Below are positions 5,883-48,624 of a stretch of 64,000 bases of DNA, one piece after another. The translations under genes and the position numbers were made by a program. How positions within the stretch are numbered: the first letter of the stretch is position 1; every line of letters starts with the position of its first letter. The DNA lies in NCBI GenBank assembly GCA_025061115.1, contig JANZKC010000001.1:640001-704000 (forward strand), read 5' to 3'. Under the pieces are notes generated by a model. The model was not told the DNA's origin, did not search any database, and saw only the letters and a list, made by a program, of their open reading frames with translations. Source of the DNA: Candidatus Culexmicrobium cathedralense (lineage in GTDB: Archaea; Thermoproteota; Methanomethylicia; Culexarchaeales; Culexmicrobiaceae).

Positions 5883-7694
5883 ATGAAAGACGAAGTTTTT
5901 AAAATGCATGAAAATAGGCTGGAATGGCTTGAGGTCAAGCGCTTCCTAAGCATTAGGTCCTCAACAAGCCCAATCGCTTCAAAGCATGAAAAATTCATAG
6001 TTTACTTAAGCGACACAACGGGATTCAACATTCCCTGGATAACCTACGGCGATAAGGCAGACATCCTATTTCCCCATGACCATAGAGTAAACTCGATCAC
6101 GCTCAGCAGTAGAGGATTGCTCGCAACCGCTAGCGACATCAATGGAAATGAGAGGTGGCAAATCCACGTCTACGACATTAAAAGTGGAAGGCTAATTCAC
6201 GTAGCTGGAGACAACGTAAACATAAATCACCCAGGAGCTTGGAGCAGCAACGGATTAGCCATGGGCTACACCTCCAACACGAGAAACGGAGTGGACTTCG
6301 ACCCATACATTTACAGGCACGGCAAGGGAGTTCAGGGACCAATAATTGAAATGGAGGGGAGAAATCGAGTGGCAGAGTGGCTAACCGACGATCACATCAT
6401 AATAAATCATGACAACACAAACCTGGACAGCGACCTAATGCTCCTCGACTTGAAGAGAAGGAAAATAATCAACCTAACCAAGCATGAAGGAGAAGCACTA
6501 AACAGCTCGCCAATAAAGCTCGACGAAAAAACATTCATATACCTAACCAACCAAGACAGGGAGTACGTTGGAATAGCACTCTACCAAGTTGACAAGAAGT
6601 CTTGGAAGTACATATACACCGTCGAACACGACATTGAAGCAATGGACATTTCAAGCGACCGGAAGAGAGTAGCATTCACGGTGAACGTTGAGGGATTCTC
6701 AAAGCTCTACATAGCTCCAATAGACTTCTCAAAGGTAGAGGAAGTTGAAGTGCCGCCTGGAGTGATAAGCGAAGTTTCATGGGGCGAAATGGGACTGGCA
6801 TTCTCAATTTCAAGCCCAAAAATAGGAAATGAAATTTGGCTCTACAAGCTAAAGGAAAAGGCTGAGCAAATAACATACTCCCCCAAATACGGGCTAGACA
6901 TGCAGTCAATGATAATTCCAGAATGCATTAGATATGAAAGCTACGACGGAATGAAAATTCCAGCACTAATGTGGAAGCCCATTAAAGGCGAGCCGCCATA
7001 CCCAGCAGTAGTAATAATTCACGGAGGACCCGAAAGCCAGTTCAGGCCGAAGTTCCAGCCACTACCCCAAATACTAGCCAAGCTAGGATACCTAGTACTA
7101 GCGCCAAACTTCAGGGGATCAAGAGGATACGGGAAAACATTCATCCACCTAGACGACAGGGAGAGAAGGCTATCATCACTAAAGGACATTGGAAGCATAG
7201 TGGACTGGGCAGTAAGTCAAGGCTTGACGGAGTATGGAAGAGTTGCAGTTACAGGAGCATCCTACGGCGGATACGCCACTCTAATGAGCATGGCACTATA
7301 CCCAGACTACTGGAGCTGCGGAGTGGAAAGAGTCGGAATGACGAGCCTAGTAACATTCTTGAAAAACACTGGTCCATGGAGAAGAAAATATAGAATACCA
7401 GAGTATGGAGACCCGGAAAAGGACTATGAAATGCTAATTGAAATAAGCCCAATGACCCACGCAGAAAAAATAAAGGCGCCACTAATGATCATCCACGGAG
7501 AAAACGACCCAAGAGTACCAATAACGGAAGCACTCCAACTAGTGGAAAAGCTGAAGAAGCTTGGAAGAAAAGTCGAATTCATAAAGCTAGGCGACGAAGG
7601 CCACGGATTAGCCAAAATAAACAATAGAGTGAAAATACTGAGCAAAACAATAGAATTCATAATGAAGCACACCCCAACGGTGAATCGAGCATAG
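5883..7694 (+). CDS. S9 family peptidase (acylaminoacyl-peptidase-like)
   Basis: Beta-propeller N-term, HGGP, GASYGG nucleophile, HGENDPRV, DEGHG. Confidence 0.93.
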   Translation: MKDEVFKMHENRLEWLEVKRFLSIRSSTSPIASKHEKFIVYLSDTTGFNIPWITYGDKADILFPHDHRVNSITLSSRGLLATASDINGNERWQIHVYDIKSGRLIHVAGDNVNINHPGAWSSNGLAMGYTSNTRNGVDFDPYIYRHGKGVQGPIIEMEGRNRVAEWLTDDHIIINHDNTNLDSDLMLLDLKRRKIINLTKHEGEALNSSPIKLDEKTFIYLTNQDREYVGIALYQVDKKSWKYIYTVEHDIEAMDISSDRKRVAFTVNVEGFSKLYIAPIDFSKVEEVEVPPGVISEVSWGEMGLAFSISSPKIGNEIWLYKLKEKAEQITYSPKYGLDMQSMIIPECIRYESYDGMKIPALMWKPIKGEPPYPAVVIIHGGPESQFRPKFQPLPQILAKLGYLVLAPNFRGSRGYGKTFIHLDDRERRLSSLKDIGSIVDWAVSQGLTEYGRVAVTGASYGGYATLMSMALYPDYWSCGVERVGMTSLVTFLKNTGPWRRKYRIPEYGDPEKDYEMLIEISPMTHAEKIKAPLMIIHGENDPRVPITEALQLVEKLKKLGRKVEFIKLGDEGHGLAKINNRVKILSKTIEFIMKHTPTVNRA

Positions 7695-7808
7695 CTAAGG
7701 CCAACTCAACAACCATAATTTATGAAGTAGCATGATAGGAGTGTACTTTAAAGTATTAGATATTAACACAAAAGCAACCCGCCTAAAAGCTACCAATTAA
7801 ACTACATA

Positions 7809-7830
7809 CATAGTAATATCATAGTAATAT
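7809..7830 (+). promoter_or_regulatory. Tandem 11-bp direct repeat CATAGTAATAT x2 at the cdc6 promoter
   Basis: Exact repeat at 7809-7819 and 7820-7830, abutting a TATAAT-like element; function inferred. Confidence 0.45.
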
Positions 7831-7852
7831 AATAACTATAGATTGGTGATGA

Positions 7853-9028
7853 GCTATCTCATCAATATTCACCAATAGGGACAGTTTATCACCAGCATAC
7901 GTCCCCGAAGTTCTCCCGCATAGGGAAGAGCAACTGAACTTCCTAAAAAGCCTACTGCGCGACTCAGTTAAGCGTAGGAGCCATTTGAGGAGCCTCCAAC
8001 TAGTAGGCAGCGTAGGAACGGGAAAAACTGCAACGGCAAAGAGGTTCGCGGAAATATTAAGGGCTGAAGCTGAGAATTGGGGGAATGAGCTAAGAACTTC
8101 ATATATCAATTTACGCAAGCACGGCCCATCGCGCTTCCTCATATTCAATGCGTTAGCCGAGCAGATCACGCCTGAACTCTCGTTTAGGGGTTATGGGCCG
8201 GAGGAAATTCTAAACGCCATAGTGAAGTACTTAAATTCAACGGGCAAGCTCGCACTAATAATAGTTGATGAAGTGGACTACCACTGCAAGCAGCACCCGA
8301 AGGAGAAGATAATTTATGACCTGACAAGGCTCGATGAAACGGCGCCAAGCGGCTACAGCAACGTAGTAGGATGCATATTCATTGCCAGAAATCCAAATTG
8401 GACTCAAATGCTAGATGAAGCAGAATTATCAAGCCTAGGTAGAATCCAAATAAGATTTCCACCCTACTCCTCAATCCAACTGAGGGACATTCTAACTCAA
8501 AGATGCAAATTAGCCTTCAAGCCAGGGGCAGTGGCAGATGAAGTAATAGAATTCATAGCTGATGTGGCAAGCAGGCCGCCAGTCAATGGAGATGCAAGAT
8601 ACGCACTAGACCTACTATTATACGCCGGAACGCTTGCAGAGCATAGGGGGTCAAGCAAAGTAACGGCCGAGCACGTTAGGCACGTCCACTCAAACCTATG
8701 CCCAACCATATCAACCGAAGACATCCAAGAGCTCCCCCACGACCTACTATACGTTTTACTGGCAATTGCAAGAACACTGAAGAGCAGCCAAACCCCATAC
8801 GTCCACATCAACGAAATCAAAAGCACATACGAAGTGATATGCGAAGTAAACAGCATCAAGCCAGTCAAAGACCTATACGAAGCAATAGACGACCTGGCAG
8901 CCAGGGAACTAATCGTAATTAGAGGATTAACTAGAATTGGAATTGCAGGAGTGTCGGCCGAAGCACTACTCCACTACCTAGACGACGTAATCAAGAGAGT
9001 TGAGGAGGCAATCAAAAGTGAACATTAG
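7853..9028 (+). CDS. cdc6: Cdc6/Orc1 family AAA+ ATPase with C-terminal winged helix
   Basis: Frame open from 7853 reads AISSIFTNRDSLSPAYVPEVLPHREEQL (canonical N-term). Walker A GSVGTGKT, Walker B IIVDEVD, FPPY, GDARYAL. No in-frame ATG/GTG/TTG before 7985. Confidence 0.9.
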   Translation, partial: AISSIFTNRDSLSPAYVPEVLPHREEQLNFLKSLLRDSVKRRSHLRSLQLVGSVGTGKTATAKRFAEILRAEAENWGNELRTSYINLRKHGPSRFLIFNALAEQITPELSFRGYGPEEILNAIVKYLNSTGKLALIIVDEVDYHCKQHPKEKIIYDLTRLDETAPSGYSNVVGCIFIARNPNWTQMLDEAELSSLGRIQIRFPPYSSIQLRDILTQRCKLAFKPGAVADEVIEFIADVASRPPVNGDARYALDLLLYAGTLAEHRGSSKVTAEHVRHVHSNLCPTISTEDIQELPHDLLYVLLAIARTLKSSQTPYVHINEIKSTYEVICEVNSIKPVKDLYEAIDDLAARELIVIRGLTRIGIAGVSAEALLHYLDDVIKRVEEAIKSEH

Positions 9029-9299
9029 AGAGGAAATTGAAAAGGCAATTGGAAGCATAAGCACCCTAAGAGTCCTAGGAGAAATGGCAAAAAACCCAAC
9101 GAAAACCTACAGCAAATACGCCCTAGCAAAGGGAACAATGCTAAATGAACGAGACGTGGCAAATGCGCTCAAAAAGCTAATAGCAATAGGATGGATTGAA
9201 GAACTAAGCTATGGAAGAATCAAAGCATACAAACTAAACCTAAACAACGAGAAAGTAAAGGCAGCCATGAAGTTCCTAAGGGAAATAGGCTACATATAA
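9018..9299 (+). CDS. Winged helix-turn-helix (ArsR-like) protein
   Basis: GTG start after GAGGAGG, overlapping the cdc6 stop; SKYALAKGTML..DVANALKKLIAIGWIEE HTH-wing pattern. Confidence 0.8.
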   Translation: MNIREEIEKAIGSISTLRVLGEMAKNPTKTYSKYALAKGTMLNERDVANALKKLIAIGWIEELSYGRIKAYKLNLNNEKVKAAMKFLREIGYI

Positions 9300-9470
9300 G
9301 CAACAGGAAACCACATTTATAGCGAAATTAATTGGGTAAGCCCAACAAGAGAAATTCAACTCGAAATATGCTGAAACCTACTTTTCAAAGTTGAAGGCAA
9401 CCCACCCCCTCCCCCCAACCTGACATTCACACTATATAAGCTCCGCAGCCCCTTGATTTCACGGTGAATT

Positions 9471-10412
9471 ATGGCACATGCACTCGAACTCGTTAGAGGC
9501 ATTGGACCTGCAACTGCAAGCAAGCTTAGGGAAATAGGCATAACAAGCGCTGAAGCCCTAGCAGTAACCCCTCCAAGAACCATCAGCGAAGCCCTAGGCA
9601 TAAGCGAGAAAATGGCAATCCAAATATGCAAAAACGCGAGGGAACTGCTCAACATAACCTTCATCACAGCTGAAGAATACCTGGAAAATCGAATGAAAAT
9701 TGGGAAAATAACAACTGGATGCAACTCCCTCGACCAACTATTGGGAGGGGGAGTTGAAACCGGAGCAGTAACCGAGTTCGTGGGGGAGTTCGGGTCAGGC
9801 AAAACCCAATTAGCCCACCAACTCTCAATCACAGTTCAACTACCCCAAAGCGAAGGAGGACTTGAAGGAGCAACCCTATACATAGACACCGAAGGAACAT
9901 TCAGGCCCGAAAGAATTCTGCAAATAGCCCCCAGATTTGGAATTGATGGAAGGGAAGCCCTAAGGAAGATAGTGTTTGCAAGAGCGTACAACAGTGACCA
10001 CCAAATCCTAATCGTCGAGGAAGCGCCGAAAATCCTGGAAAAGCACAGCGTCAAGCTAATAGTCGTAGACAGCCTAATCAGCCACTTCAGAGGAGAATTC
10101 CCCGGCCGGGAAAACCTAGCCCTAAGGCAGCAGAAGTTGAATAGGCACATCCACCAGCTCCTAGCCCTAGCGGACGCCTACAACCTAGCAGTAATAGTAA
10201 CCAATCAAGTAATGTCGGATCCAGCAACATTCTATGGAAATCCAACCAAGCCAACTGGAGGACACGTGCTAGCCCACTCATGCACCTACAGAATATGGCT
10301 CAGAAAAGCGAAGGGAGGAAAGAGAATAGCAAGAATATTCGACAGCCCAATGCACCCCGAAGGAGAAGCGGTGTTCAAGATAAGCGATGAAGGAATAGTC
10401 GACGCAAAATAG
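9471..10412 (+). CDS. radA: DNA repair and recombination protein RadA
   Basis: HhH N-term ([10 protein letters not shown]), FITA polymerization motif, [38 protein letters not shown]. Confidence 0.95.
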
Positions 10413-10414
10413 CA

Positions 10415-10433
10415 AGCCTCCAACTTGGAGGCT
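10415..10433. promoter_or_regulatory. Perfect 9-bp inverted repeat AGCCTCCAA-C-TTGGAGGCT covering the RBS of the next gene
   Basis: Seen directly in the 26-bp radA/radA-like intergenic gap. Confidence 0.55.
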
Positions 10434-10438
10434 CCAAA

Positions 10439-11176
10439 ATGGCTGAAGCAAAATTCACCAATGCACTAAAGCTACTTGAAATGCAGGTGGGAGCAAAGGC
10501 TTCAACCGGAATAGATGGGCTTGACAATGCCATGGGGGGAATTGAAGCTGGAAAAAGCTACCTAATATACTCCTCCGCCGGAGAAATGGCGGACCTGCTG
10601 GCGCTCAAAATAGCAGTGAATATGCTCAAGCCAATAAGGCGCGGAGGGCTTGGCGGAGCATCAATAATAATTGCATGCAGCAACTACCGAACGGACAGAA
10701 CCATAGTGGACACCTACCTAGTAAGCGACCTAATGAAAGCTGCAGGCCTAGAGCCGGAAGAATACTTCAACAAAATAGCAATCTCAGGATGCTACAACCT
10801 AGAACAGCTGAAATTAACCGCAAAAATGCTTGAAAAGCAGATTAGGAGAATTAAAGCCAAACTAGTAGCACTGCTCCAGCCAATCAAGCTAATCAAAACC
10901 CTGGAAGACATCAAGAGGCTGAATGGAATTTCATGGAGAATAAAGTGCAGCTGCACCAAGCACAGCGCAATCCTCATAGCAACGGCAAAAGCCTCGAAAG
11001 GCAAGGCTGAAGCAGAAATTCCACTGCCAGCAGGATCATACCTAAAACACCTATTCAACGTAATCATATACCTAAAAAGGTCGAAGAAGCCCGAATACGC
11101 CTACGCCTACATCATAAAGCACCCGCTAAAGCCCAAGGTTAGACGGAGCTTCGAGGTGAAATTATGGGAAGACTAA
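10439..11176 (+). CDS. RadA/RecA-fold paralog with degenerate ATPase motifs
   Basis: STGIDGLDNAMGGIEAG entry into the RecA fold and RGGLGG; Walker A replaced by YSSAGEMA, Walker B lacks Asp. Confidence 0.8.
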   Translation: MAEAKFTNALKLLEMQVGAKASTGIDGLDNAMGGIEAGKSYLIYSSAGEMADLLALKIAVNMLKPIRRGGLGGASIIIACSNYRTDRTIVDTYLVSDLMKAAGLEPEEYFNKIAISGCYNLEQLKLTAKMLEKQIRRIKAKLVALLQPIKLIKTLEDIKRLNGISWRIKCSCTKHSAILIATAKASKGKAEAEIPLPAGSYLKHLFNVIIYLKRSKKPEYAYAYIIKHPLKPKVRRSFEVKLWED

Positions 11177-11469
11177 CAATTTCAATTAGAATGAAGCTTG
11201 AAGCAAAAATCATGGAGCTGGAAAATAAATTCAAAAATGCGCTGATCTCCCTAAAGAGGCGAAGAGCCTTTGACAAAATAGTTGAAGCGTGGAGCCGCGA
11301 ACTCCAAGCAATAAGCTACCTAAACTCGCCAACACTAATGGAGTCAATGCTACTGGTAGCAGCAGTAGATAATAGAAGTGAAATCGAAGAGCTGAAGGAG
11401 AAGGTAAAATGGATAGCCGGTAAAGTTGAGAAGCTTAAGGAAGGATTGAAAGGTGAAAAGCGAAGTTGA
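11164..11469 (+). CDS. Small alpha-helical PolB2-associated protein (arCOG07300-like)
   Basis: MGR.T.S.R...F..AL...RRAFD.....ESMLL...coiled coil; overlaps both neighbours. Confidence 0.75.
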   Translation: MGRLTISIRMKLEAKIMELENKFKNALISLKRRRAFDKIVEAWSRELQAISYLNSPTLMESMLLVAAVDNRSEIEELKEKVKWIAGKVEKLKEGLKGEKRS

Positions 11470-13589
11470 AAGGCTACATGATAACGGTGGGCATCCGCGA
11501 CGGCAGCGCATTCATCTGGCTGAAAACTTTAAGCGACAAAGTCGTGAAGATAACTAGAAGCTACAAGCCAGACCTATACGTCAAGCCGACCCGCATGAAT
11601 TTAAGCGAAATATGGAACCTACTTGAAAGAAGCCCCCACATCCACAAGCTAAATCTCGAACTTAAGAAGGTAAACTTCAACTCGAAAAGGAAAATCAAGG
11701 TGATTCACGCCCGCGCTGAAGGAGAGGAAAGCTACAGGATAATTTTAAGGAGGCTATCCGCCCACCCATGCAAACTCTACAACTACGATCTAGCCCACAG
11801 GCAGAAATTAATGTTCGAGCTAAAGGTTCCATGCCTAAACCCAATTGAATACGACAAGCCAAGTGGAGAGTTTAAGGCAATCAACGATGACCTAAACTTG
11901 GAGCCCCCTCCAATAAGCCACCTAAAGCTAGATCTTGAAGTAGCATGCGAGGGGTGGAATCCAAATCCAAAGCGCGATCCAATCAAGCGAATAATCCTAC
12001 AAGCCGAAAACGACCCAATTGTACTGGAGGGAAGTGAAAGTGAAATTCTAACTGAACTTGAAAAGGCAATCAATGAATTCGACCCAGACCTCATAATCAC
12101 ACCCAAAATTGCCGCCAAATACATTAACTGGAGAACCCAAATCAACCAGTTAAATTTAAATCTGGGCAGGGATTCGGCTGGCAGCAATTTGGGAGCAAGC
12201 TATGAGGGAAGAGCAATAATTAATCCAGCCCACTACGAGGAATACGGTCTAGCTGGAATAGCAGAGTTATGCAACTATTCCATGCTTCCACCAGATCTAG
12301 CAGTAAGCTGGCCAGTTGGAAAGCTCGTTGACTCAAGGCAGTGCTACGAAGCAATTAAGAGGAATATGCTGCTCCCACCAGCAAGAAACCCCAACACGGA
12401 CTTCAGATTGCTAAGCCAATTCCATCAAGCCGACCACGGGGGATTAACGCTGAATCCAAAGCCCGGAGTATATGAAAACGTATGCCAACTCGACTTCGAC
12501 TCCCAATACCCCAACATAATAGTCAACTACAACATAAGCTACGAAACAGTGCTCGACACGGGAAAAGTTCTAAGCAAACCAAGGGGATTCCTAGCTGAAA
12601 TAACCGAATACTGGCTAAAGAGAAGACTGCACTTCAAAAGGCAGGCGAAGATGCTTCCGCCGGGAAAACTGAAAACCTATGCAGAGCAGAGGCAGAAGGC
12701 ACTAAAGTCAGTTCTAGTCGTAGTATACGGCTATTCAGGATGCCCATGGAACAGATTCGGCAACGTAAAGTGCTTCGAAGAAATAAACAGAATTTCACGC
12801 AAAATACTAGTGAAGGCACTCAACATCGCTGAGGAATTGGGATTCGAAGTAATCTACGCGGATGTAGACTCAATATACGTGCACAAGCCCAACGCAAACC
12901 TAAGCGACTACGAGCATTTGAGGAGTGAAATTGCAAGCCAAACTGGACTCCCAATATCAATTGAAAACTGGTTTAAATTCATAGCATTCCCACCGCAAAA
13001 ATCAAATCCGAGTCTACCGGCGGTTAAGCGGTACTTCGGCAAACTAATGAACGGCGAAATAGTATTCAAGGGAATTGAAGCCAAACGCTACGACCAGCCA
13101 AAACTCATCAGAGAAGTTCAATTAAAAATGATTGAAGAGTTATTCAAAGCCCAAAGCATACGCGAAGTCAAAGGCAATATCGAGAGGGCTATGAAGGTGC
13201 TGGCAAATGCAGTTAAAGCCCTAAGCGAAGGAAAAATCTCGGCAGAAAAGCTGGTAATCAACAGAATGCTCCACAAACACCCGTTAAAGTACAGGTCGAA
13301 ATTCCCCCACGTAATAGCGGCACTCCAACTAATCCAGCGTGGAGCAAGCATCAAGCCAAGAATGCCAGTAAGCTACATAATCACCAAAGCCAAAAGCAAA
13401 AACCCCTACCTGAAAGTAAATGCAGTAGATCCAGCCAAAGGCAAGTACGACCCGGAAAAATACATTGAAATACTGATAAGCGCAGCAGAAACAATACTCT
13501 CACCCCTAAAAATAAGTAAGGTGCAAATAATCAACTACCTCCAACAGCTCACCCCATTAATTAAGACGCGTAATTACGCGTTAGCCTAA
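11466..13589 (+). CDS. polB2: Family B DNA polymerase, PolB2-type, exonuclease degenerate
   Basis: Motif A LDFDSQYPNII, motif B RQKALKSVLVVVYGYSG, motif C YADVDS, KRYFG, KGIEAKR; gene context typical of PolB2. Confidence 0.88.
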   Translation: MKGYMITVGIRDGSAFIWLKTLSDKVVKITRSYKPDLYVKPTRMNLSEIWNLLERSPHIHKLNLELKKVNFNSKRKIKVIHARAEGEESYRIILRRLSAHPCKLYNYDLAHRQKLMFELKVPCLNPIEYDKPSGEFKAINDDLNLEPPPISHLKLDLEVACEGWNPNPKRDPIKRIILQAENDPIVLEGSESEILTELEKAINEFDPDLIITPKIAAKYINWRTQINQLNLNLGRDSAGSNLGASYEGRAIINPAHYEEYGLAGIAELCNYSMLPPDLAVSWPVGKLVDSRQCYEAIKRNMLLPPARNPNTDFRLLSQFHQADHGGLTLNPKPGVYENVCQLDFDSQYPNIIVNYNISYETVLDTGKVLSKPRGFLAEITEYWLKRRLHFKRQAKMLPPGKLKTYAEQRQKALKSVLVVVYGYSGCPWNRFGNVKCFEEINRISRKILVKALNIAEELGFEVIYADVDSIYVHKPNANLSDYEHLRSEIASQTGLPISIENWFKFIAFPPQKSNPSLPAVKRYFGKLMNGEIVFKGIEAKRYDQPKLIREVQLKMIEELFKAQSIREVKGNIERAMKVLANAVKALSEGKISAEKLVINRMLHKHPLKYRSKFPHVIAALQLIQRGASIKPRMPVSYIITKAKSKNPYLKVNAVDPAKGKYDPEKYIEILISAAETILSPLKISKVQIINYLQQLTPLIKTRNYALA

Positions 13590-13735
13590 ACATGAATCGA
13601 AGAGCACAACCCACTAGGCTGCAAATACAAATATTTGGGAAGAAAGTATCGCCCAAAAACTTACAAGCTTTGCAATCATTAAGCGCTTTATAGAGTTCAC
13701 CGCCATAGCTGAGGTAAACTACAAATGCAGATAAA

Positions 13736-13948
13736 TTGGAAGGTAATAAGGTGAAATATTTGGTTAGCAATGAAGGGTCTTTCACGATATTAGTCGAAAA
13801 AGATGAAGACGGATACTATGTAGCTGAGGTGGCTGAATTACCAGGCTGCCACACCCAAGCAAAAAGCATGAAAGAATTAATGAAAAGAATACGTGAAGCA
13901 ATACAGCTCTACATTGAAGAGCAGACTTCTGAGGATAATTCAAAATAG
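13736..13948 (+). CDS. hicB: HicB family antitoxin (orphan)
   Basis: FTILVEKDEDGYYVAEVAELPGCHTQAK...IREAIQLYIE. Confidence 0.85.
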   Translation: MEGNKVKYLVSNEGSFTILVEKDEDGYYVAEVAELPGCHTQAKSMKELMKRIREAIQLYIEEQTSEDNSK

Positions 13949-13996
13949 GCTCCTAGTAGGCAGCCTTAAGTCTTGAACAATTAATATCTACTTCTG

Positions 13997-14779
13997 GTGA
14001 AGCGCATGGACATGCTGGATGCGATCATGAATAGGCGCACAATCCGCAAATTCAAGTCTAAGCCGGTTCCGGAAGAATTAGTGTTGAAGATAGTTGAGGC
14101 TGGGCAGAGAGCTCCAACAGCATGCTCCCTCCAAACCTACACCATAATCTGGGTTAAAGACGAGGAGAAGAGGAAAGCCCTATGTGAAGCCTGTGGAAAG
14201 CAGCAATTCATCCTGGAGGCGCCTGTAACCCTAACCATATGCGCAGACGTGAGGAAGCTAATTGACATCGCCAAAATAGGTGGAAATGTAACTTCACTTG
14301 AAAGAGGCTATGGATATGCAGTAAAGCTATTCGCAATAATAGATGCAGCATTAGCAGCCGAAAACATGGTCATAGCTGCAGAAGCCCTAGGACTAGGCTC
14401 AGTATTCATTGGAGGGGCACTAGCAAACCCAAAGGTCGTGGAAATACTAAACCTACCAAAAGGAGTGCTGCCCATAAGCCTACTATGCATAGGATATCCG
14501 GATGAAAAGCCGCCCGTAAGGCCGAGGCTCCCATTAGAAGCAGCCCTATTCATAGACGAATACAGGCGGCTAAGCAAAGAACAGCTGGAAAAAGCCGTAA
14601 AAATCATGAATGAAAAACTGGCTGAGGAAGGCTACTACACTAAATACTCGAGAAGACCGCCAGAATTCAGATGGATAGACAACGTGAAGAGAAAATTAGC
14701 TATAAACTTGGAGAGGGAGAAAATCATAGTCGAAACCATGAAGAGACAGGGATACCACCCATACGAGCCAATAGAATGA
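13997..14779 (+). CDS. Nitroreductase family (NfsA-like)
   Basis: RRTIRKF, APTACSLQ, DAALAAENM..AAEALGLGSVFIG, LCIGYP, RPRLP. Confidence 0.92.
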   Translation: MKRMDMLDAIMNRRTIRKFKSKPVPEELVLKIVEAGQRAPTACSLQTYTIIWVKDEEKRKALCEACGKQQFILEAPVTLTICADVRKLIDIAKIGGNVTSLERGYGYAVKLFAIIDAALAAENMVIAAEALGLGSVFIGGALANPKVVEILNLPKGVLPISLLCIGYPDEKPPVRPRLPLEAALFIDEYRRLSKEQLEKAVKIMNEKLAEEGYYTKYSRRPPEFRWIDNVKRKLAINLEREKIIVETMKRQGYHPYEPIE

Positions 14780-20313: not shown

Positions 20314-20748
20314 TCATGGCGAAACTCGAAAGCGCCTAATGTGCCTAACCCTCTCAGGATCATCAATCTTCCCAATCAGCTTCTCATCAGCAGTGTAGAG
20401 CACGGCGTTCAACTCGTAAGCTAATGCTGCGTAGGATGCATCATAAAGAGTTAAGCCCTTCCTCATGGCAATTTCAACGGCTTTCAAAGCAACTCCACCC
20501 TTCAAGCTAAACTCGGTGAATTGACAGTCCTCCAATATCCTGGCAACCTCCTTCAACTCATCCTCACCAAACTCGCCAGAATACTTCAAAGCATTAAGAA
20601 CTTCATAGTACACTAGGCTGGGGACAACTACGTCAATCAAACCACTTGCATAAGCATCCCTCAGCAGGCCAGCCTCCCTAGAATAATCCTCCTCAACAAA
20701 CCACTTACAAATAACAGATGCATCAACAACTACCTTCGCTCTCTCCAC
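20314..20748 (-). CDS. vapC: VapC PIN-domain toxin
   Basis: VVDASVICKWF, YEVLNAL, YDASY, TAD. Confidence 0.9.
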   Translation of the reverse strand: MERAKVVVDASVICKWFVEEDYSREAGLLRDAYASGLIDVVVPSLVYYEVLNALKYSGEFGEDELKEVARILEDCQFTEFSLKGGVALKAVEIAMRKGLTLYDASYAALAYELNAVLYTADEKLIGKIDDPERVRHIRRFRVSP

Positions 20749-20978
20749 CGCCTAATCTCCTCCACACTACTCCAACCCTCAACCCTACGCACCAACTTTT
20801 TAGAGCGCAAAACCGCCCTCCTAATCCTAGCGAAATCCTTCTCCTCCCTTCGAGCCAACTCCCTAGCAACGACCTCGGCGATAGCTCGCCTCACAACCTC
20901 GCTCCAATTAATATGCCTAAGCTCATCCATCCTACGCTTCAACTCCCTATCAATCCTAAAACTAACAACAACACTCAA
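20730..20978 (-). CDS. vapB: RHH-type VapB antitoxin
   Basis: VVSFRIDRELKRRM..INWSEVVR...SVEEIRRWR; overlaps vapC. Confidence 0.85.
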   Translation of the reverse strand: MSVVVSFRIDRELKRRMDELRHINWSEVVRRAIAEVVARELARREEKDFARIRRAVLRSKKLVRRVEGWSSVEEIRRWRERR

Positions 20979-21257
20979 CCCAACCACCAAAACGTAATAC
21001 AATTATCGTAATATAAATATTACTCACCTAGAATAGGAAAATGCGACGCCAACAAGAATGCATCTAAAGATCACCCACCACAATCCCGCAAGCCCAAACC
21101 ATCATTAGACAAAGCAAAACACTTAGGAAAACAGCCGCAACATTCATGGCATTCGCACCATACGCACTTGGATTGACAGCAATTATAGTAGGAGCGCCTG
21201 GGCAAACTATAACATTAAAATATGCTTAAATGCAGGTATTGGAGGGAGTGATTAAAC

Positions 21258-22370: not shown

Positions 22371-22793
22371 CTAAAATATTCTCTTCAAAGGCGTGTTATC
22401 GAAATCCGCATCATTTGTTACTATTTCCTTGGCACCTGCCTTCAGCGCCGCTGCAAGGTGTAATAAGTCTTCATAATCAAGGCCATATTCTTTCATCAGT
22501 TCAGCCGCCCGAACATAATCCTCAGGCTCTAGCCTAACGATTACTAAACCCTTGAGATGCGTTATCGCATTAACAATGCTTTCCACCAGCTGTTTATCCC
22601 TCAGGTTCCTGCCCGTTAAGCCCGCCATGATTACAAGTATCTCATATATGGTCAGACTTGACGTTACGTATTTCCCTCGGGAGCTTCTTTCAATTAACCT
22701 TACCCACCTATATGCCGTTTCACCGTAGGTTGGATGATCACCCAACCAATATATGAAGACATTGACATCTACATATCTTTTGACATCCACCAC
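22371..22793 (-). CDS. vapC: VapC PIN-domain toxin
   Basis: YVDVNVFIY, YEI, DYEDLLHLA, TNDADFD. Confidence 0.9.
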   Translation of the reverse strand: MVDVKRYVDVNVFIYWLGDHPTYGETAYRWVRLIERSSRGKYVTSSLTIYEILVIMAGLTGRNLRDKQLVESIVNAITHLKGLVIVRLEPEDYVRAAELMKEYGLDYEDLLHLAAALKAGAKEIVTNDADFDNTPLKRIF

Positions 22794-33296: not shown

Positions 33297-34985
33297 CTAT
33301 GCCAACAACATAAAGAGGGGAGCTGGAATTGCTATAAAATCTTTATTTCTATAAAATTCCATACCTGCATAGACCAGTATTCCTCTAACCTTTAGCTGTT
33401 TACTTAATCGAACAAGTTTCTTTATATGATCACTATCAACTTTATTACCGGAATAGACTTCTATTGGAATAAGTCTTCCCTTAACATCTATTAGAAAATC
33501 TATTTCTCTACCAGGCTTCGACTTAAAATAGAACATTTTCCTTTTCAATAATCTAATATCCTGAATAATCTCTAAGGAAAAAATCATGTGAGCAATATTG
33601 CTTGCAACAACCATCTCTACAATAACGCCTCTCCACTCACTCAATCTACTCAAGACCAGAGAATATGGATCGCTACTTCCAGCACTTATAGCCTTGAAAG
33701 CATAGAACATCAGGGGATCCCAAAAGTAGAATTTTCTAGGACTCCTCAAAGGAGATTTACGCTTGCTAAAATCCTTTAATTTTCCTACTTCAATTAAAAC
33801 AAAGGCGTCTACAAGGTAATTCAAATATTGTCTGACTGTATTATGTGAAATTCCAAGCTTATTAGCCAATTTATTATCACTAATTTCCTTAACTGGAACG
33901 GCTTCAAAGGGTCCTCTTGGAGCCTCCAAAAGTTGATAGAGAATATCATATAGTGTATTTTCATTTAACCTCCACTTCATTGCATCCTTCACTGCAAGAT
34001 CTACAAAATCCAAATAAACACTAGGATGTATCCTCCCAAGAGTTAAGAACTGTCGAACTGCAAGAGGAAAACCTCCAGTTAGAAGGTAATCTTCAAAGTA
34101 TGCATAAAGCTCATTTAAGTAAGTTTCAGCCATCTCTAAAAAAGGCGGTATTCCACCATCCAGCCTAGTAAGCTCATTAAAGGCATCCAATCGCCTCTCA
34201 ACCTTCAAAAACTCTTTACTAATAAATAAACTTCTAATATCACGCTTACCAGCCAACATTTCCCTATAATATGCATATTCAGAAAACTTCATTGGAAGGA
34301 GTAATTTATCATTACCCCCCTCCAACATCACACCTTTCCTTAAGCCAAGAGTCTCAGCACCCTTCCTAACATCTAAGCTATGACTCCCAGTAACCAGCAA
34401 TTTAACATGGTTCCTAGTTAGAAGGCCAGAATCATATAAATCCTTAACAGCAAGTTGCCAATTCTTCAAACTACTAACCTCATCAAGAAAGATAAAAGTA
34501 TCACCAGGGCGATCCCTCCGCCTAATAATGAAATCTCGAATCACGTTAGCCAAGCCATTAACCCCACCCAATCCAGCCCTATCACAACGTATATAAGCTA
34601 TCTTCAAAGGATCAATTCGATTTAACAAAAGCTCTCTAATCAAAAGCTTAATCAAAGTAGTCTTTCCCACACGCCTAGGACCCCTCAAACTTACAAGAAC
34701 ATATTTCCCCTCAGCCTCAAGAAAATTCTTCCTTAAAAGATAGAGAAGACGCGGCGTCCAAATCTCACTAATCCTCAAAACCTTACCCGGACTCTTAAGC
34801 TCACTAATATGAGGATCACGCTCACCCATCACCTCAGTCAACGGAATCCTCAAACGCCTCACAATATCATCTCTAGAAAGACTCTCCGCCTCAACAGTTT
34901 TCATTAAATCCTCTAGAAGGCTTAGGAAATCAGGCCTCCACCACCAATTATCTTCAACTAGAAATGAGATTGACAAGTTTATCAT
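33297..34985 (-). CDS. AAA_14 ATPase with DUF4143 PD-(D/E)XK C-terminus
   Basis: GPRRVGKT, FIFLDEV, VTGS, YLLTGGFP, RKFYFWDP, EIDF..PIEV. Confidence 0.9.
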   Translation of the reverse strand: MINLSISFLVEDNWWWRPDFLSLLEDLMKTVEAESLSRDDIVRRLRIPLTEVMGERDPHISELKSPGKVLRISEIWTPRLLYLLRKNFLEAEGKYVLVSLRGPRRVGKTTLIKLLIRELLLNRIDPLKIAYIRCDRAGLGGVNGLANVIRDFIIRRRDRPGDTFIFLDEVSSLKNWQLAVKDLYDSGLLTRNHVKLLVTGSHSLDVRKGAETLGLRKGVMLEGGNDKLLLPMKFSEYAYYREMLAGKRDIRSLFISKEFLKVERRLDAFNELTRLDGGIPPFLEMAETYLNELYAYFEDYLLTGGFPLAVRQFLTLGRIHPSVYLDFVDLAVKDAMKWRLNENTLYDILYQLLEAPRGPFEAVPVKEISDNKLANKLGISHNTVRQYLNYLVDAFVLIEVGKLKDFSKRKSPLRSPRKFYFWDPLMFYAFKAISAGSSDPYSLVLSRLSEWRGVIVEMVVASNIAHMIFSLEIIQDIRLLKRKMFYFKSKPGREIDFLIDVKGRLIPIEVYSGNKVDSDHIKKLVRLSKQLKVRGILVYAGMEFYRNKDFIAIPAPLFMLLA

Positions 34986-44329: not shown

Positions 44330-44840
44330 TACAGCTACTATCAATGCTGAGCATATACATCTTCACGTATATAGCGAGCGAAGCCATCTCCGCGGGGACA
44401 CTCTACATATCGATGATGATAGCTTGGCGATACTAGCAATACCGAGCCCACTCCTAAATGCAGCACTGCCCATAGGAGCACGGAGAAACGTAGATCCATT
44501 CAGCGATAGCCTCAGGATAGGGCTAGCACCAGCGACACTGATCATAGTAGCCGTAGTAGCGGGCGCTAAGAGCGCTTCTTCAAGCAGCAAGCCTGGGGCT
44601 CATAGATGGGGCAAATGTGTTGAGAAGCCTACTACTATCCTTAACACCGCTAGCAGTTCTAACCGCTACGGTAACAAAACTAAACAAAGAAAGGAGGACA
44701 AGCATGCTCGTAGCGATGGGCGCACTACTACTATCCCTACTAGCAGCGTTAATGATACCACTAACAAAGCTCTTCAAAACCGAAGGAGCAGCCCTAGCAT
44801 TCCTCACAGCAAACACCACACTATAAGACACCGCCCCCTT
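44330..44840 (+). pseudogene. Flippase-like membrane protein remnant
   Basis: Hydrophobic segments across shifting frames (AGTLYISMMIA / LAIPSPLLNAALP / LTPLAVLTATVTKLN). Confidence 0.5.
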
Positions 44841-47800
44841 AACTACGAACAAGAACCCTCCCAACATACTTCCTCAAAGCTAAAGCCCATCTATCACCCC
44901 TAGACCTACGCCAGTCCCACACTAAGTAAAAGATGCATAAAGCAAAAGTAGTAGCAGAAATCTTAAGACCAAGCTCAAACCAGTCCTGAGGAACATACCT
45001 GATAACAATAGTGAGGTCACCGGTCTCATTAATCCAGAAGCCGTTGATAACACCGTAGACAGGGATAGACCTAACCCCCTCAAGAAGCTCACCGTCCCTA
45101 TAGACCATAGCCTCCCATAGAGGATCATAAGCCTCAGCAAAAACAAGCATAAACGGCTTCTTAGCAATAACCTTAACCTTCCACATTGTTGGGTCTATAC
45201 GCTCATAGCGAATTACCTTAGCAAGCTCTTCTTTAACTTTGAAGAGATCTTCAATTGTTGTTCTAGAGGTGGGTGATTCAACGGAGTAAATCCATATAAC
45301 ATCGAGATACAGAGATTTCTTAGAAGCTTCCACACGAATTGTATGGTTACCTTTCTCAAGGTGTATAGGCCCTATATAGTGGAAGTCGATAGCGTTTGAG
45401 GATACCTCATAGCTCTTCTCATCTATGACAACTTTTGCATCTCCTCTCAGCTTTATGGCTACCATGTAATAGCCATCTTTAACAACTTCGAAGCTCTGCC
45501 ATGCATAGCCTCCAGGTTCTATAGATAGTGCTTCGCCGTTGCTAGCGTTGATATTCTTAACAATCTTAGCTTCTGCTCTAAACATATCTGACTCAGCTTC
45601 GAAGATGTAGATGACTGTTTTGTTCTCTAAGAGCCTCTCAAACTCCTTAACAAGCTTGCTGTATTCATCAACAGGTATCAGAACAAACACATTGAAAGCG
45701 TTAAAGCCCTCAACATTCTCTAGCATCAGCACATGTCTACCAGCTTCGAGCTTAAACGTACCCAGGTCTCTCCACACAAACCTATTCAGCTGGCTAATAG
45801 TGCTGATCTCGGCGATAAGCCTACCATCGAGATAGACCCTTATAGCACCACCCTTCTGATTTTCAAAGTAACGAGCAAAGAGTTTGTACTTGCCCGATCT
45901 AGACACATCGAAAGGCATGTCCAGAGTAACACGCCTAACATTTTTTGTGACATCATAGACCTTAACATAGTCAATCATAATGATATTAGGCAAAGGCTTA
46001 ACCGTTAAATGACCATGCCAAATCTGAAGCTGAACATAACGAACCCTACTACTGCTAGGAACATAGTTAAACACGACCTCCTTCCAATCAAAAGTACCAT
46101 CACCAACATTCTTAACGTGCTCAACATCAATTTTTTTCTTGTTAGAATCAAACTCAGCGATCTTAATATGGATCTTATGAGCGTTAACACCGCGAATCTT
46201 AACAACAAATTGATAGGCATGCTGAGGATCAACCAGTATCAATGGTGTGTTAATAGTCTTCCAACCCCAAGTAGAATTGTAAAGTTCGACTTCGAGAATA
46301 CCATCGACGCAAATTAACTTTTGTAATGCATTAAACTGTTTAGATGGTGTATTCTCTATCCACGGAAGACAGTCATCTTGTGAGTTGTATTCCCAAGACT
46401 TAATGAGATCCCTATTAGAGAGCTTGAGATTTGATGGAATATTATGTTTAGCCCGTGTAAAGGCTAAACCATAGCCGTAATCAAAGTCCCAAGCCCATTC
46501 ATTAATGCCTAATTTTTTCAGAGTACTTTGAAAGCTGTAACTCGACGTGGAATAGCCATAACTCCACATTCTTTCAGGTGTCACAATCCTCTTAACAAAA
46601 GCAGCAGGTTGTATTACTATTTTCTTGTCTAGCTTTGCCAAGATAAGAGGTACTATAGAACTATTACCTACTATAATAGTGTGATCAAAAATATGATGAA
46701 AGTCTTTAATACTTTTTATATCTAAGCTATTTAGAAAGATTATAGAAACTCTAACATTTGATTCACTAGTATATATAACGTTTACTAAAGAAGCATAGGC
46801 TGGTAGGCCACCTACAACTATGCTCGTAGTATTGGGAATGAAAATACGTTGAAACACGTTCTGTATTTGGAAAACGGTTAAATACTCTCCTTCGTAAATA
46901 ACCTTTAGGGTTCTATCGTTTCTAAGTTTATTAACGATGGATTTTATATACAAATTCGTGTAATTAATCTTTTCTTCATATTCGTTCCATGTTAAATCAT
47001 AGTGGATAATCAAGTACTTGATATTTAAGGGTCCGAAAATATTACCCCACCTAAGGTCTTTGTAACCGTCTAAAGGTCGGTAAAATGGTCTCCAACCAAT
47101 AGGATTATAATAATCGAAGAAGTAGAATTTTGTGTACAAGTATGTTGGTAGGGATGAGGATTTTAGATCGAATCTACCTGTTGGTGGACCACTATAAGGG
47201 GAAGAACCGTTTATCCAAACAGCTTTTCTACCCCCGAAGATGGGCAACCATAAAGCATGAAAGAAAGGATTTTCAGCTTTGATTAATTTGTTTACATATG
47301 TGTAATCTTTTGGTACTGTTGTAGGACTCCAATAACAATTTAGATTACCCGTTAGTAAAGGCCAGCTTGAGACCAGCGCAGAAAATAAGATTATAAAACA
47401 TAATATTCCCAGCACTATTTGCATTATTTTCTTTTTATTTTTACCGTTATATATTTTTTCGTATACTAACACAATTAAAGATGCAAGAAGTACCTCATAG
47501 TATAAAGGTAGAAACATAGCATTATGATAGCTTTGTCTAATTAACCTTCCAAGAGAAGGAAAGTTTCCCATCAGATTTATCAAATAATTTGAAAGTGGAG
47601 CCTCCTTAAGCATTGATAAATACAGAGTTATTGGGATAAGTACTGGAAAACTGATAATTACCCATGAACTCGGTCTCATCATCCTAATTATTGAATTCAT
47701 AAAGATTATGGAAGACAATGCTAGGATAGTAATGGAAAGGGACAGAAATGGTCTTTTGTCAGATGGAGGATAAGGATTGGAGAAATGAGAACCAAGGTAA

Positions 47801-48624
47801 TTCGTGAAGAATAATGAGAACGCATTTATTGGTCTTTCACCAGATATATTACTGACAGTAAAGGCTTGAATGACTGTTGGTTGGTTGGTAAGACTTGTAA
47901 GTAGTAGTGGAAGATACACGGGCAATAGCATACTTCCAAGAAATGCCGTTGTCATTAATAACCTTTTTACAACGATTTTTACCTTTCTGTTAAAGATGAT
48001 ATAAAAGATTGCGAGAAGAGATGCTGGAAGGAGAAACTTAAATATATACCGTGAAGTTTCAACCAATGAGAAAAATATTGCAAATACAAAAGAGTAACGA
48101 AGATATCTTTTATCTTCTAAAATCTTTATCCACAAGTAGAATAACAGAGGCGATAAAGCGTATTGCCACCGTAATACTAAGTTTCTGCTTCGATGAGTTA
48201 TCCAAGGATTGAAAGTATAAACTAAGGAAATTAATATGAGGAGAAAAACAATCAAAGTAGTTACCCTGTTTTTCTCCAATAAAGTTTTCTTTAAAAAATA
48301 ATAGCTAGTTAAGAAACTTACAGGATGAATGAGGATCAGAAAAAGCTTTATTGCCACCTCAAAACCCATGGCTTTAGAAAGGAAGTAGATTATGTGATAC
48401 AAATAGTATTTCGGTACATCAGCAATCGATGTTATACCTATCTGATCATCCCAAACCTGAGTAGCTTTTAGGAAGTGTTCTTCGTCGTAGACTTCTACTT
48501 GTTCAGCCAATATGGGTATACCAGGACTTAAAATAACCTTAGATCCCACAGCAAATGCGATGGTTATAGCTACGCATATCAGTATGAGTTTTTCCATCAA
48601 GTTACCATACATAAATCCTTGCAT
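44839..48624 (-). CDS. Large membrane protein: multi-TM GT-C-like N-terminus, extracellular carbohydrate-binding-like domains, C-terminal TM
   Basis: About 12 TMs with YTFNPW; NIKYLIIH; beta-sandwich repeats; LVFAEAYDPLW..INGFWI YfhO-like C-term. Confidence 0.75.
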   Translation of the reverse strand: MQGFMYGNLMEKLILICVAITIAFAVGSKVILSPGIPILAEQVEVYDEEHFLKATQVWDDQIGITSIADVPKYYLYHIIYFLSKAMGFEVAIKLFLILIHPVSFLTSYYFLKKTLLEKNRVTTLIVFLLILISLVYTFNPWITHRSRNLVLRWQYALSPLLFYLWIKILEDKRYLRYSFVFAIFFSLVETSRYIFKFLLPASLLAIFYIIFNRKVKIVVKRLLMTTAFLGSMLLPVYLPLLLTSLTNQPTVIQAFTVSNISGERPINAFSLFFTNYLGSHFSNPYPPSDKRPFLSLSITILALSSIIFMNSIIRMMRPSSWVIISFPVLIPITLYLSMLKEAPLSNYLINLMGNFPSLGRLIRQSYHNAMFLPLYYEVLLASLIVLVYEKIYNGKNKKKIMQIVLGILCFIILFSALVSSWPLLTGNLNCYWSPTTVPKDYTYVNKLIKAENPFFHALWLPIFGGRKAVWINGSSPYSGPPTGRFDLKSSSLPTYLYTKFYFFDYYNPIGWRPFYRPLDGYKDLRWGNIFGPLNIKYLIIHYDLTWNEYEEKINYTNLYIKSIVNKLRNDRTLKVIYEGEYLTVFQIQNVFQRIFIPNTTSIVVGGLPAYASLVNVIYTSESNVRVSIIFLNSLDIKSIKDFHHIFDHTIIVGNSSIVPLILAKLDKKIVIQPAAFVKRIVTPERMWSYGYSTSSYSFQSTLKKLGINEWAWDFDYGYGLAFTRAKHNIPSNLKLSNRDLIKSWEYNSQDDCLPWIENTPSKQFNALQKLICVDGILEVELYNSTWGWKTINTPLILVDPQHAYQFVVKIRGVNAHKIHIKIAEFDSNKKKIDVEHVKNVGDGTFDWKEVVFNYVPSSSRVRYVQLQIWHGHLTVKPLPNIIMIDYVKVYDVTKNVRRVTLDMPFDVSRSGKYKLFARYFENQKGGAIRVYLDGRLIAEISTISQLNRFVWRDLGTFKLEAGRHVLMLENVEGFNAFNVFVLIPVDEYSKLVKEFERLLENKTVIYIFEAESDMFRAEAKIVKNINASNGEALSIEPGGYAWQSFEVVKDGYYMVAIKLRGDAKVVIDEKSYEVSSNAIDFHYIGPIHLEKGNHTIRVEASKKSLYLDVIWIYSVESPTSRTTIEDLFKVKEELAKVIRYERIDPTMWKVKVIAKKPFMLVFAEAYDPLWEAMVYRDGELLEGVRSIPVYGVINGFWINETGDLTIVIRYVPQDWFELGLKISATTFALCIFYLVWDWRRSRGDRWALALRKYVGRVLVRS

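Follow-up and report, generated by a model that had tools for sequence, protein, structure and literature searches.

The family B DNA polymerase PolB2 has been described in predicted operons together with an arCOG07300 protein and inactivated homologs of RadA, and in many euryarchaea an arORC2-family gene lies near it (Makarova 2014, PMC4104785). The main text of a later study (Timinskas 2025, PMC11791011) renames the two partners PPB2 and iRadA, models a complex of PolB2, iRadA, and a PPB2 trimer in which iRadA binds PolB2 via a motif resembling that of RadA oligomerization, and draws a parallel between this assembly and bacterial Pol V. The same text reports an intact DxD motif in a TACK subgroup, an enrichment of orc1/cdc6, SRAP, and DUF72 genes in polB2 neighborhoods, and inferred frequent horizontal transfer of PolB2, and it summarizes findings from Sulfolobus in which the genes of the PolB2 operon are damage-induced and tied to an Orc1/Cdc6 paralog. 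Here, we analyzed a 64,000-nucleotide stretch of DNA from the uncultured hydrothermal archaeon Candidatus Culexmicrobium cathedralense (hereafter, the window; G000:C1:640001-704000 of a 1.98-Mb genome in 25 contigs, 99.99% complete with 7.65% contamination) that carries an extended form of this operon, in which genes for an Orc1/Cdc6 protein, a small winged helix-turn-helix (wHTH) protein, and a full-length RadA precede those for iRadA, PPB2, and PolB2. Our preferred reading, to which we give a probability of roughly 0.55, is that two separately conserved modules of TACK archaea have been fused into one regulated island for recombination and translesion synthesis.

The six co-oriented genes on the + strand between 7853 and 13589, which a first-pass annotation of the letters had picked out together with their overlaps and a 26-bp gap, were confirmed from open reading frames (ORFs), Pfam, and NCBIfam. 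The cdc6 and wHTH genes overlap by 29 nt, radA is separated from iRadA by 26 nt, iRadA and PPB2 overlap by 13 nt, and PPB2 and polB2 overlap by 4 nt. The downstream half is the published mutasome operon, and the association of PolB2 with arCOG07300 and an inactive RadA that had been noted for this locus agrees with both papers cited above. The first of these three genes, iRadA (10439..11176, + strand, 245 aa), encodes a RadA core without the N-terminal domain; it has no Pfam match and aligns with positions 62-192 of the RadA profile TIGR02236 (E 4e-7), and it has lost the Lys/Thr of Walker A (SSAGEMAD) and the Asp of Walker B (LVALLQ), which identifies it as an iRadA. PPB2 (11164..11469, + strand, 101 aa) occupies the arCOG07300 position and has no Pfam or NCBIfam match; its N-terminal MGRxT arm and an AFDxxxxAW block are conserved in 19 aligned sequences, its phmmer and jackhmmer matches are the genes of the same position in other loci (68 loci by phmmer), and in many loci it is fused to iRadA in a protein of ~350 aa. 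PolB2 itself (11466..13589, + strand, 707 aa) matches PF00136 at 127.8 bits and NF004416 at 278 bits, the latter below cut-off, retains intact motifs A (DFDSQYP) and C (YADVDS, the DxD motif) as in the published TACK subgroup, and groups with operon-linked PolBs apart from the two other PolBs of the genome, which places this third PolB in the PolB2 group. The Pfam scan gave no match to the exonuclease domain PF03104 in this protein, and exonuclease activity has presumably been lost.

It is the upstream half that sets the window apart from the published operon, in that the operon starts with a full-length RadA of the active type and is accompanied by a Cdc6 of a dedicated clade, an ArsR-like wHTH protein, and a conserved promoter box of consensus C6TC6. 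Neither an intact RadA or small wHTH protein as an operon member nor such a promoter element is mentioned in the main texts of the two PolB2 papers, whose supplementary neighborhood tables may list some, and literature searches on iRadA and on Dpo2/Orc1-2/RadA returned nothing further. The first-pass annotation had known of no description of the full arrangement; the linkage of PolB2 to orc1/cdc6 is in fact in print in both papers, and the claim holds only in part.

For comparison, 26 PolB2 relatives were aligned, and 80 loci (the best 80 of 156 confirmed) were fetched with up to 10 kb of flanking DNA, using search patterns that favor the PolB2 subgroup of the window, with Sulfolobales-type PolB2 lying outside the sample. 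ORFs were classified by phmmer and jackhmmer with the six window proteins, and only loci with enough upstream DNA were counted, hence the denominators of 68, 57, and 50 used below. Homologs of iRadA and of PPB2 were each found in 63 of 68 PolB2 loci, a full-length RadA lies directly upstream in 23 of 57, Cdc6 is present in 15 of 50, and Cdc6 and RadA occur together in 13 of 50. The full co-oriented order from Cdc6 through wHTH and RadA to iRadA/PPB2 and PolB2 was found in 9 of 50 loci (L014, L017, L019, L022, L025, L030, L032, L040, and L076); Cdc6 is divergently oriented in L007, L013, L016, and L028, six loci have RadA without Cdc6, and two have Cdc6 without RadA. The carriers are labeled Bathyarchaeia, Nitrososphaeria, Geothermarchaeales, Brockarchaeota, and Thermofilaceae, and full cassettes turn up on several deep branches of the PolB2 tree (FastTree, 75 sequences; 6 of 81 rows shorter than 600 aa were omitted). 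The gene order thus recurs in other TACK archaea, and the six-gene arrangement, found in the same order in many unrelated metagenome-assembled genomes (MAGs), is far from what chance would give.

Three observations on the sampled loci are recorded here in their own right. One Bathyarchaeota MAG (CALEIY01) holds two complete cassettes (L019 and L025) on different contigs and in different PolB2 clades, and these represent either two acquisitions or a mixed bin. Two loci with bacterial labels, L068 (Krumholzibacteriaceae) and L070 (Patescibacteria), contain iRadA-PPB2-PolB2 and nest among Bathyarchaeia in the PolB2 tree, and they are probably mis-binned archaeal contigs. DUF72-like genes, called by eye from a sequence motif, lie beside 10 of 27 RadA- or Cdc6-linked cassettes (L012, L014, L018, L019, L021, L022, L025, L026, L040, and L076), in agreement with the neighborhoods described by Timinskas 2025; the homologs of DUF72 in the window's genome are located elsewhere, the best at C1:227707-228672.

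The RadA of the cassette (9471..10412, + strand, 313 aa) is identified as such by scores of 461 bits to NF003301 (cut-off 259) and 444 bits to TIGR02236 (cut-off 361), with further matches to PF08423 (309 bits) and the helix-hairpin-helix (HhH) domain PF14520 (35.5 bits), and it is predicted to be catalytically intact, as Walker A, Walker B (LIVVDS), and the FxTA polymerization motif are all kept. A second RadA (C1:566204-567181, 321 bits) is 59% identical to it, and shorter RadA paralogs are also present in the genome. Together with an Orc1-1-type Cdc6 encoded elsewhere, this makes the radA and cdc6 of the window extra copies, not the sole housekeeping copies; likewise, a further full-length RadA is present in 11 of 14 additional genomes that carry a cassette RadA. 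In a 43-row tree (this and the other trees, apart from that of PolB2, are quick trees with SH-aLRT support), the cassette RadAs cluster, with 4 label changes versus a shuffle mean of 14.4, and the window RadA does not pair with the other RadA of its own genome.

A survey of the phylum with PF08423 (301 genomes; 150 of 713 matches listed) extended this picture, with at least 11 genomes having two Rad51-domain matches of at least 302.8 bits among the matches listed. Both RadA loci were fetched for five such genomes from the window's taxonomic order or class (G296, G169, G182, G200, and G260), and in three of the five (G296 C35, G169 C1, and G200 C2) one of them is a cdc6-wHTH-radA triad in the gene order of the window; a bathyarchaeial genome also has this triad (L081). 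Ordinary genes follow radA in the triads of G169 and G200, and the G296 contig ends 432 nt past the triad radA. With the window protein as query (E<=1e-40), no PolB2 was found in G296, G169, G182, or G200, and that of G260 is on another contig. In a 53-row tree, one clade (lineage B, SH-aLRT 98-99) unites the window RadA with the triad RadAs of G296 (73% identical to that of the window), G169, and G200, both G182 copies, the G260 C8 copy, and a Thermofilaceae cassette RadA, and another (lineage A, SH-aLRT 100) contains the window genome's other RadA with those of G011, G296 C70, G169 C4, G200 C1, and G260 C7. Judged from these trees, there are two full-length RadA lineages in the class, with Cdc6-wHTH accompanying lineage B. 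The first-pass annotation had cast RadA as the sensor of the mutasome; because the triad occurs in relatives without PolB2 downstream, RadA is not a mutasome-specific sensor. Apart from the two lineages, the genome holds a third RadA-like gene, divergent yet of full length (G000:C1:746443-747426; 327 aa, Rad51 domain at 185 bits, Walker A intact, HhH-like N-terminus), which is kept in the nearest relative (L121, G011) and forms a long branch outside both.

The cassette Cdc6 belongs to the Orc1/Cdc6 family by a TIGR02928 score of 243 bits (cut-off 181.3), matches the Cdc6 lid PF22703 (85.7 bits) and the C-terminal winged helix PF09079 (37.1 bits) above cut-off, and contains a Walker A (GSVGTGKT) and a Walker B (IIVDEVD) in its translation. 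The coordinates proposed earlier for its gene need one correction, in that the codon at 7853 directly follows an in-frame TGA and does not serve as a start. The frame is open from 7853, with no ATG, GTG, or TTG before 7985, and the 44 residues ahead of 7985 match the start of the family profile and the N-termini of 16 cassette homologs, whose first residue is 1-3 positions ahead of a conserved S-[IV]-F. A Shine-Dalgarno-like GGTGA (7845..7849, + strand) lies 6 nt upstream of an ATC at 7856, and the G296 ortholog (L141, G296:C35 3024-3040, - strand) shows the same layout of a stop, no canonical start, GGTGA, 6 nt, and ATT. In strain-variant contigs of two other metagenome runs, there is no indel in the stretch from 7853 to 7985, and the two substitutions of these variants (7900 and 7963) are at third codon positions. 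We infer that the gene (7856..9028, + strand) probably starts at the non-canonical ATC at 7856, and the layout shared by the window and G296 suggests a conserved weak AUY start codon. Upstream, the AT-rich promoter region of cdc6 includes an 11-nt tandem repeat (CATAGTAATAT, two copies, 7809..7830, + strand) and is length-polymorphic between strains, with a 12-nt insertion after 7696 in run X3 and a 15-nt deletion at 7805 that touches the CATAGTAATAT repeat in run X2.

Three Cdc6 genes are present in the window's genome, of which the copy on C4 is the Orc1-1 ortholog (453 bits to 2qby_A) and that on C2 is closest to 1fnn. Against structures, the window Cdc6 scores 156 bits to 2v1u, 151 bits to 2qby_A, and 63 bits to 1w5s, the ORC2 of A. 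pernix, which we take to group with Sulfolobus Orc1-2. On this assumption, the cassette Cdc6 was rejected as an Orc1-2 ortholog, being nearer to the Orc1-1-type structures, and the control of damage-induced Dpo2 by Orc1-2 in Sulfolobus, invoked as a precedent in the first-pass annotation, finds no footing in orthology. The cassette type instead appears to be a clade of its own, as all 17 cassette Cdc6 proteins fall on one side of a branch with SH-aLRT 99 (quick tree, 25 rows), separate from the Orc1-1-type copies and with the C2-type paralog among the nearest outgroups. When five genomes were searched for Cdc6, three contained both the cassette copy (195-221 bits) and a clear Orc1-1-type one (377-412 bits), and in G009 the cassette copy was the only one.

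The gene overlapping the 3' end of cdc6 (9000..9299, + strand) encodes a 99-aa protein that on its own gives only sub-threshold matches to Pfam wHTH families. A profile built from 18 homologs aligns over positions 9-96 with the structures of HlyU (4e-6), CzrA, ArsR, and SmtB (E 4e-6 to 1e-3), and one relative (P0126) matches HTH_5 at 24.8 bits (cut-off 22), consistent with an ArsR/SmtB-like winged-helix protein. Most cassette Cdc6 genes have an overlapping partner of this type. Among 1.84 billion cluster representatives, the family has 1945 members at a threshold of E<=1e-3, of which 214 remain at E<=1e-10; most are 90-105 aa long, and among the longer matches scanned, one of 690 aa (P0235) is a natural fusion of the wHTH domain to a complete Cdc6. 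A second Cdc6-wHTH pair exists in the window's genome at G000:C2:285105-286572 (L122 1106-2573), where a 90-aa wHTH paralog overlaps the Cdc6 gene; this pair is a few kb from two RFC-like genes (identified by eye). That the two genes overlap, occur as a pair twice in one genome, and are fused in P0235 argues that Cdc6 and the wHTH protein would function together.

The intergenic region between the wHTH gene and radA holds the promoter element mentioned above, hereafter the C-box. In the window, it reads ACCCCCTCCCCCC (9404..9416, + strand) and is positioned 16 nt before a predicted TATA-like box, TATATAA (9433..9439, + strand), which is itself 31 nt before the radA ATG, so that the C-box is 55 nt from the start codon. 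When the 80 loci were searched on both strands (2.28 million nt-strands) for C6TC6 with at most 1 mismatch, 15 matches were obtained, 12 of them on the + strand and immediately ahead of the first operon gene. Counted from -200 to +20 of the first gene, the C-box occurs with at most 1 mismatch in 10 of 23 RadA-first and 3 of 38 iRadA-first operons (expected per region, 0.0013) and with at most 2 mismatches in 13 of 23 and 7 of 38, respectively (expected per region, 0.009). In anchored alignments, it lies upstream of both the TATA-like element, at a distance of 14-20 nt, and the start codon, at a distance of 43-62 nt, and a degenerate form is found in Asgard loci (Jordarchaeia and Freyarchaeia) and in further Bathyarchaeia; several loci have a second ACGGTACGT box that is absent in the window. 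The 1.98-Mb genome of the window has three sites with at most 1 mismatch, of which the cassette site is the sole intergenic one, the other two lying inside ORFs. In G001, G003, and G012, the cassette carries the only exact copy of the box in the whole genome; G009, which is C-rich, has three exact copies, and G005 has none. A reversed-pattern control says nothing about these counts, as the pattern is identical in reverse. The triads of G296, G169, and G200, which are without PolB2, also have the C-box ahead of radA. No C-box was found upstream of cdc6 in the upstream regions read, and the conserved box upstream of radA does not support the earlier description of the cassette as self-regulating. 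We regard the C-box as the strongest new evidence that radA would be the genuine first gene of a specifically regulated unit, and its position upstream of the BRE (TFB recognition element)/TATA would suit an activator.

Four Caldarchaeales-type loci with RadA-iRadA-PPB2-PolB2 and no Cdc6 (L054, L065, L069, and L080) have no C-box and share another conserved motif upstream of radA (cactttcgccgaggggtcttaa...), which hints at a different regulator in these operons. Compared with the Dpo2-Orc1-2 system of Sulfolobus/Saccharolobus, the window shares an Orc1/Cdc6 paralog tied to a PolB2 operon that is damage-inducible in Sulfolobus, but its Cdc6 is encoded beside the operon and is Orc1-1-like, and its candidate cis-element is C-rich. 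The cis-element of Orc1-2 is a hexanucleotide motif, from which the window box differs. The Sulfolobus-type ANTTTC motif was considered for the radA promoter and gave no match by eye, although a 6-mer with one free position is uninformative in any case.

A chance juxtaposition of housekeeping genes with a PolB2 operon might be suspected from the fact that both RadA and Cdc6 score above the curated cut-offs of ordinary families, so that annotation pipelines would give them standard names. It is refuted by the conservation data, as both genes are extra copies, the order is found in 9-13 of 50 loci from several classes, the Cdc6 and RadA proteins form cassette-specific clades, and the promoter box is shared; we give it a negligible probability.

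In the fused island that we favor, the first module would consist of the cassette Cdc6 and the overlapping ArsR-like wHTH protein, followed by the C6TC6/TATA promoter and the lineage B RadA, and the second of the published mutasome operon of iRadA, PPB2, and PolB2 directly downstream of radA. Given the 26-nt gap and the overlapping genes, one C-box promoter most likely drives a radA-iRadA-PPB2-polB2 transcript, and cdc6-wHTH would be a separate upstream unit translated from its weak AUC start. The Orc1/Cdc6-wHTH pair would act as the dedicated DNA-binding regulator of the C-box promoter, switching on the extra recombinase and the error-prone polymerase complex together. Once induced, RadA would coat single-stranded gaps or form D-loops, and the PolB2-iRadA-PPB2 complex would extend 3' ends there in translesion or recombination-associated synthesis. 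A contact between the two halves may be provided by iRadA, whose N-terminus MAEAKFTNALKLLE (F-T-N-A, an FxxA motif) aligns with the RadA polymerization motif. The [F/M]xxA motif with a following helix is the majority consensus of 52 iRadAs (52 of 62 ORFs of 220-400 aa were aligned) and is seen both with and without a linked RadA. As a lead only, iRadA could dock on RadA by placing this motif in the pocket of a protomer, while PolB2 fills the pocket of iRadA itself as in the model of Timinskas 2025 (PMC11791011). A complex prediction for RadA and iRadA, run without controls, scored 0.01 against a mark of 0.32 and counts neither for nor against binding. Co-transcription, the binder of the C-box, inducibility, and the RadA-iRadA contact are thus what we infer from sequence, and the function of the locus is most likely that of a co-regulated, and probably stress-inducible, unit for recombination and error-prone synthesis.

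The organization invites comparison with the bacterial SOS response, in which LexA-controlled recA, umuDC/Pol V, and imuA-imuB-dnaE2 follow a similar logic of a recombinase, an inactive adaptor, an error-prone polymerase, and a nearby regulator. The regulator, polymerase family, and accessories are unrelated to those of the window, and no self-cleaving repressor is present, so the likeness is one of analogy and not of membership. A more ambitious version of our reading would make this an SOS-like regulon of TACK and some Asgard archaea, in which Cdc6 and its ArsR-like partner read C6TC6 and switch on a second RadA and the PolB2 mutasome, with the FxxA motif of iRadA docking the polymerase on the end of a RadA filament much as Pol V is activated by RecA; we hold this version tentatively, as a possibility that is as yet doubtful.

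Several results weigh against the regulated-island reading. In 34 of 57 PolB2 loci there is no RadA upstream, and the G169 and G200 triads are, conversely, without a detected PolB2, so that the modules are separable. The Orc1-1-like affinity of the cassette Cdc6 means that, on sequence comparison, the Sulfolobus Orc1-2 precedent is not transferable by orthology. G001, G006, and G013 have the cassette RadA as the only full-length RadA found, and it may be the housekeeping enzyme in these genomes. A recent in-lineage duplication of radA was rejected only marginally (20.9 log-likelihood units; p-AU, from the approximately unbiased test, 0.038, for a group named post hoc). An intact DxD motif accompanies 23 of 25 PolB2s with RadA versus 15 of 34 without it (raw Fisher p 1e-4), an association not upheld by an independent-pairs test, for which there were too few informative pairs. 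AlphaFold gave a poor score of 0.28 for PolB2 with active RadA in the main text of Timinskas 2025 (PMC11791011). Finally, the C-box is present at L012, L018, L034, and L003, where no Cdc6 lies within up to 10 kb upstream, and its binder may therefore be another factor.

This last result bears directly on a rival explanation in which the C-box operon is real but is regulated by another factor or by a DNA structure (an i-motif or the G-rich strand), with Cdc6-wHTH having a separate job, such as loading or recruiting at damaged DNA. The four operons with a box and no nearby Cdc6, the boxes of L020 and L030 with 3-4 C-runs, and the absence of a C-box upstream of cdc6 itself would all fit such a scenario. 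However, nearly all Cdc6-bearing loci have a C-box, intact or degenerate, both Cdc6 and box are missing from the Caldarchaeales-type clade, and the cassette Cdc6 clade has co-traveled with the operon across phylum-level lineages. In addition, the sites bound by Orc1 in haloarchaea are reported to include G-rich "G-strings" (PMC4010727), and on that ground the neighboring Cdc6 may reasonably be proposed as the C-box binder. We therefore consider regulation independent of Cdc6-wHTH rather unlikely, and return to the pair as the candidate regulator of a fused island.

The term island is used because the nearest relative has no such block at the corresponding site. Window positions 5894-7672 and 14018-14772 align by blastn with G011 C2:130013-131791 (79.6%) and 131938-132692 (82.5%), respectively, leaving 146 bp between the two homology blocks in G011 (G278 in the 301-genome sample, same family), where the genes for the S9 peptidase and the nitroreductase that flank the window block have adjacent orthologs (82% and 87% identity, respectively). 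The six genes and a HicB-like ORF thus represent one 6.3-kb insertion or deletion (7673..14017). The PolB2 of G011 is only 60% identical and is encoded ~36 kb away with PPB2 and only the C-terminal third of iRadA, without cdc6, wHTH, or radA. The HicB-like antitoxin ORF (13736..13948, + strand; PF15919, 37.1 bits, cut-off 27) lies between polB2 and the nitroreductase gene and is a passenger at the right edge, outside the conserved cassette. The locus is listed in seven metagenome runs, all of them DNA, and strain-variant contigs bridge both junctions in three further hydrothermal vent/sediment metagenome runs, from which it follows that the island is stable within the population; among relatives it is patchy.

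An insertion of this kind could also be the core of a degraded or cryptic mobile element, with Cdc6-wHTH as initiator, RadA and PolB as replication machinery, and HicB as an addiction remnant. The indel of the whole block relative to a relative whose reduced PolB2 locus sits elsewhere on the contig, the HicB-like ORF at the island edge, the 60% identity of PolB2 as opposed to 82-87% for the flanking proteins, and the frequent horizontal transfer of PolB2 inferred by Timinskas 2025 (PMC11791011) are compatible with mobility. Yet none of the seven island ORFs encodes an integrase, transposase, or casposase, the borders have no direct or inverted repeat of at least 11 nt, and no tRNA gene was noticed there, a dedicated tRNA scan not having been made. 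The same junctions recur in strain variants from other samples, the flanking genes differ between carriers with DUF72 as the sole recurrent neighbor (10 of 27 loci), and the triads of G169 and G200 are set among ordinary genes. A mobile element is, accordingly, distinctly unlikely.

A Cdc6 gene could alternatively mark a chromosomal origin, with RadA and PolB2 serving origin-linked or recombination-dependent initiation, a possibility raised for arORC2-linked PolB2 by Makarova 2014 (PMC4104785). Next to oriC of P. furiosus, a five-gene operon with Cdc6/Orc1, DP1, DP2, and RadB (PMC4148896) similarly places Orc1/Cdc6, a DNA polymerase, and a RadA-family gene in one transcription unit, and an AT-rich tandem repeat is found upstream of cdc6 in the window. 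The P. furiosus operon differs in having a replicative family D polymerase, a short RadB, and a chromosomal origin, whereas the window has an accessory PolB2, a full-length RadA, and no origin-sized intergenic region. Its spacer upstream of cdc6 is 158 nt, and that of 10 of 15 other loci is <150 nt, too short for an arrangement of origin recognition boxes (ORB) around a duplex unwinding element (ORB-DUE-ORB); one 11-nt tandem pair is the sole repeat in the spacer, which does not make an oriC. The genome has a separate Orc1-1 ortholog, the island is missing in the nearest relative, unlike a chromosomal origin, and the cumulative GC skew of the window does not change at 7.8 kb. An origin is thus very unlikely, and the mobile-element, origin, and chance readings are all less likely than that of a regulated island.

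Elsewhere in the window, the G+C content falls from 0.43-0.48 to 0.34-0.39 over ~22000-64000, with strong strand skews. This part contains large ORFs without a Pfam match (e.g., 44839-48624, 1261 aa), glycosyltransferases, a Big_1-repeat protein, and ATPases of the AAA_21/AbiEii type (57538-58686) and with AAA_14/DUF4143 (33297-34985), and it may be a variable surface or defense region. Small ORFs at 20314-21002 and 22371-22793 resemble PIN-domain (VapC-like) toxins by eye, one of them with an overlapping small partner gene.

The iRadA-PPB2-PolB2 genes and their link to Orc1/Cdc6 were already known from the main texts of Makarova 2014 and Timinskas 2025; what is new here is that the radA and cdc6 of the locus are extra copies, together with the cassette Cdc6 clade and its wHTH partner, the second RadA lineage, the C6TC6 box, and the absence of the island in the nearest relative. 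This extended form of the PolB2 operon is widespread, and the regulation of the archaeal damage response and of induced mutagenesis is largely unknown outside Sulfolobales, for which a promoter box with few or no other copies in several genomes, the Cdc6 clade with an ArsR-like partner as candidate regulator, and the second RadA lineage provide handles. For annotation, the two "RadA" and three "Orc1/Cdc6" genes of such genomes are not redundant copies. Should the Cdc6-wHTH pair prove to bind the box, it would add a second, independent example of an origin-recognition-type protein taken over for transcription control, and the locus would represent a minimal regulon of archaea in which recombination is coupled to error-prone synthesis.

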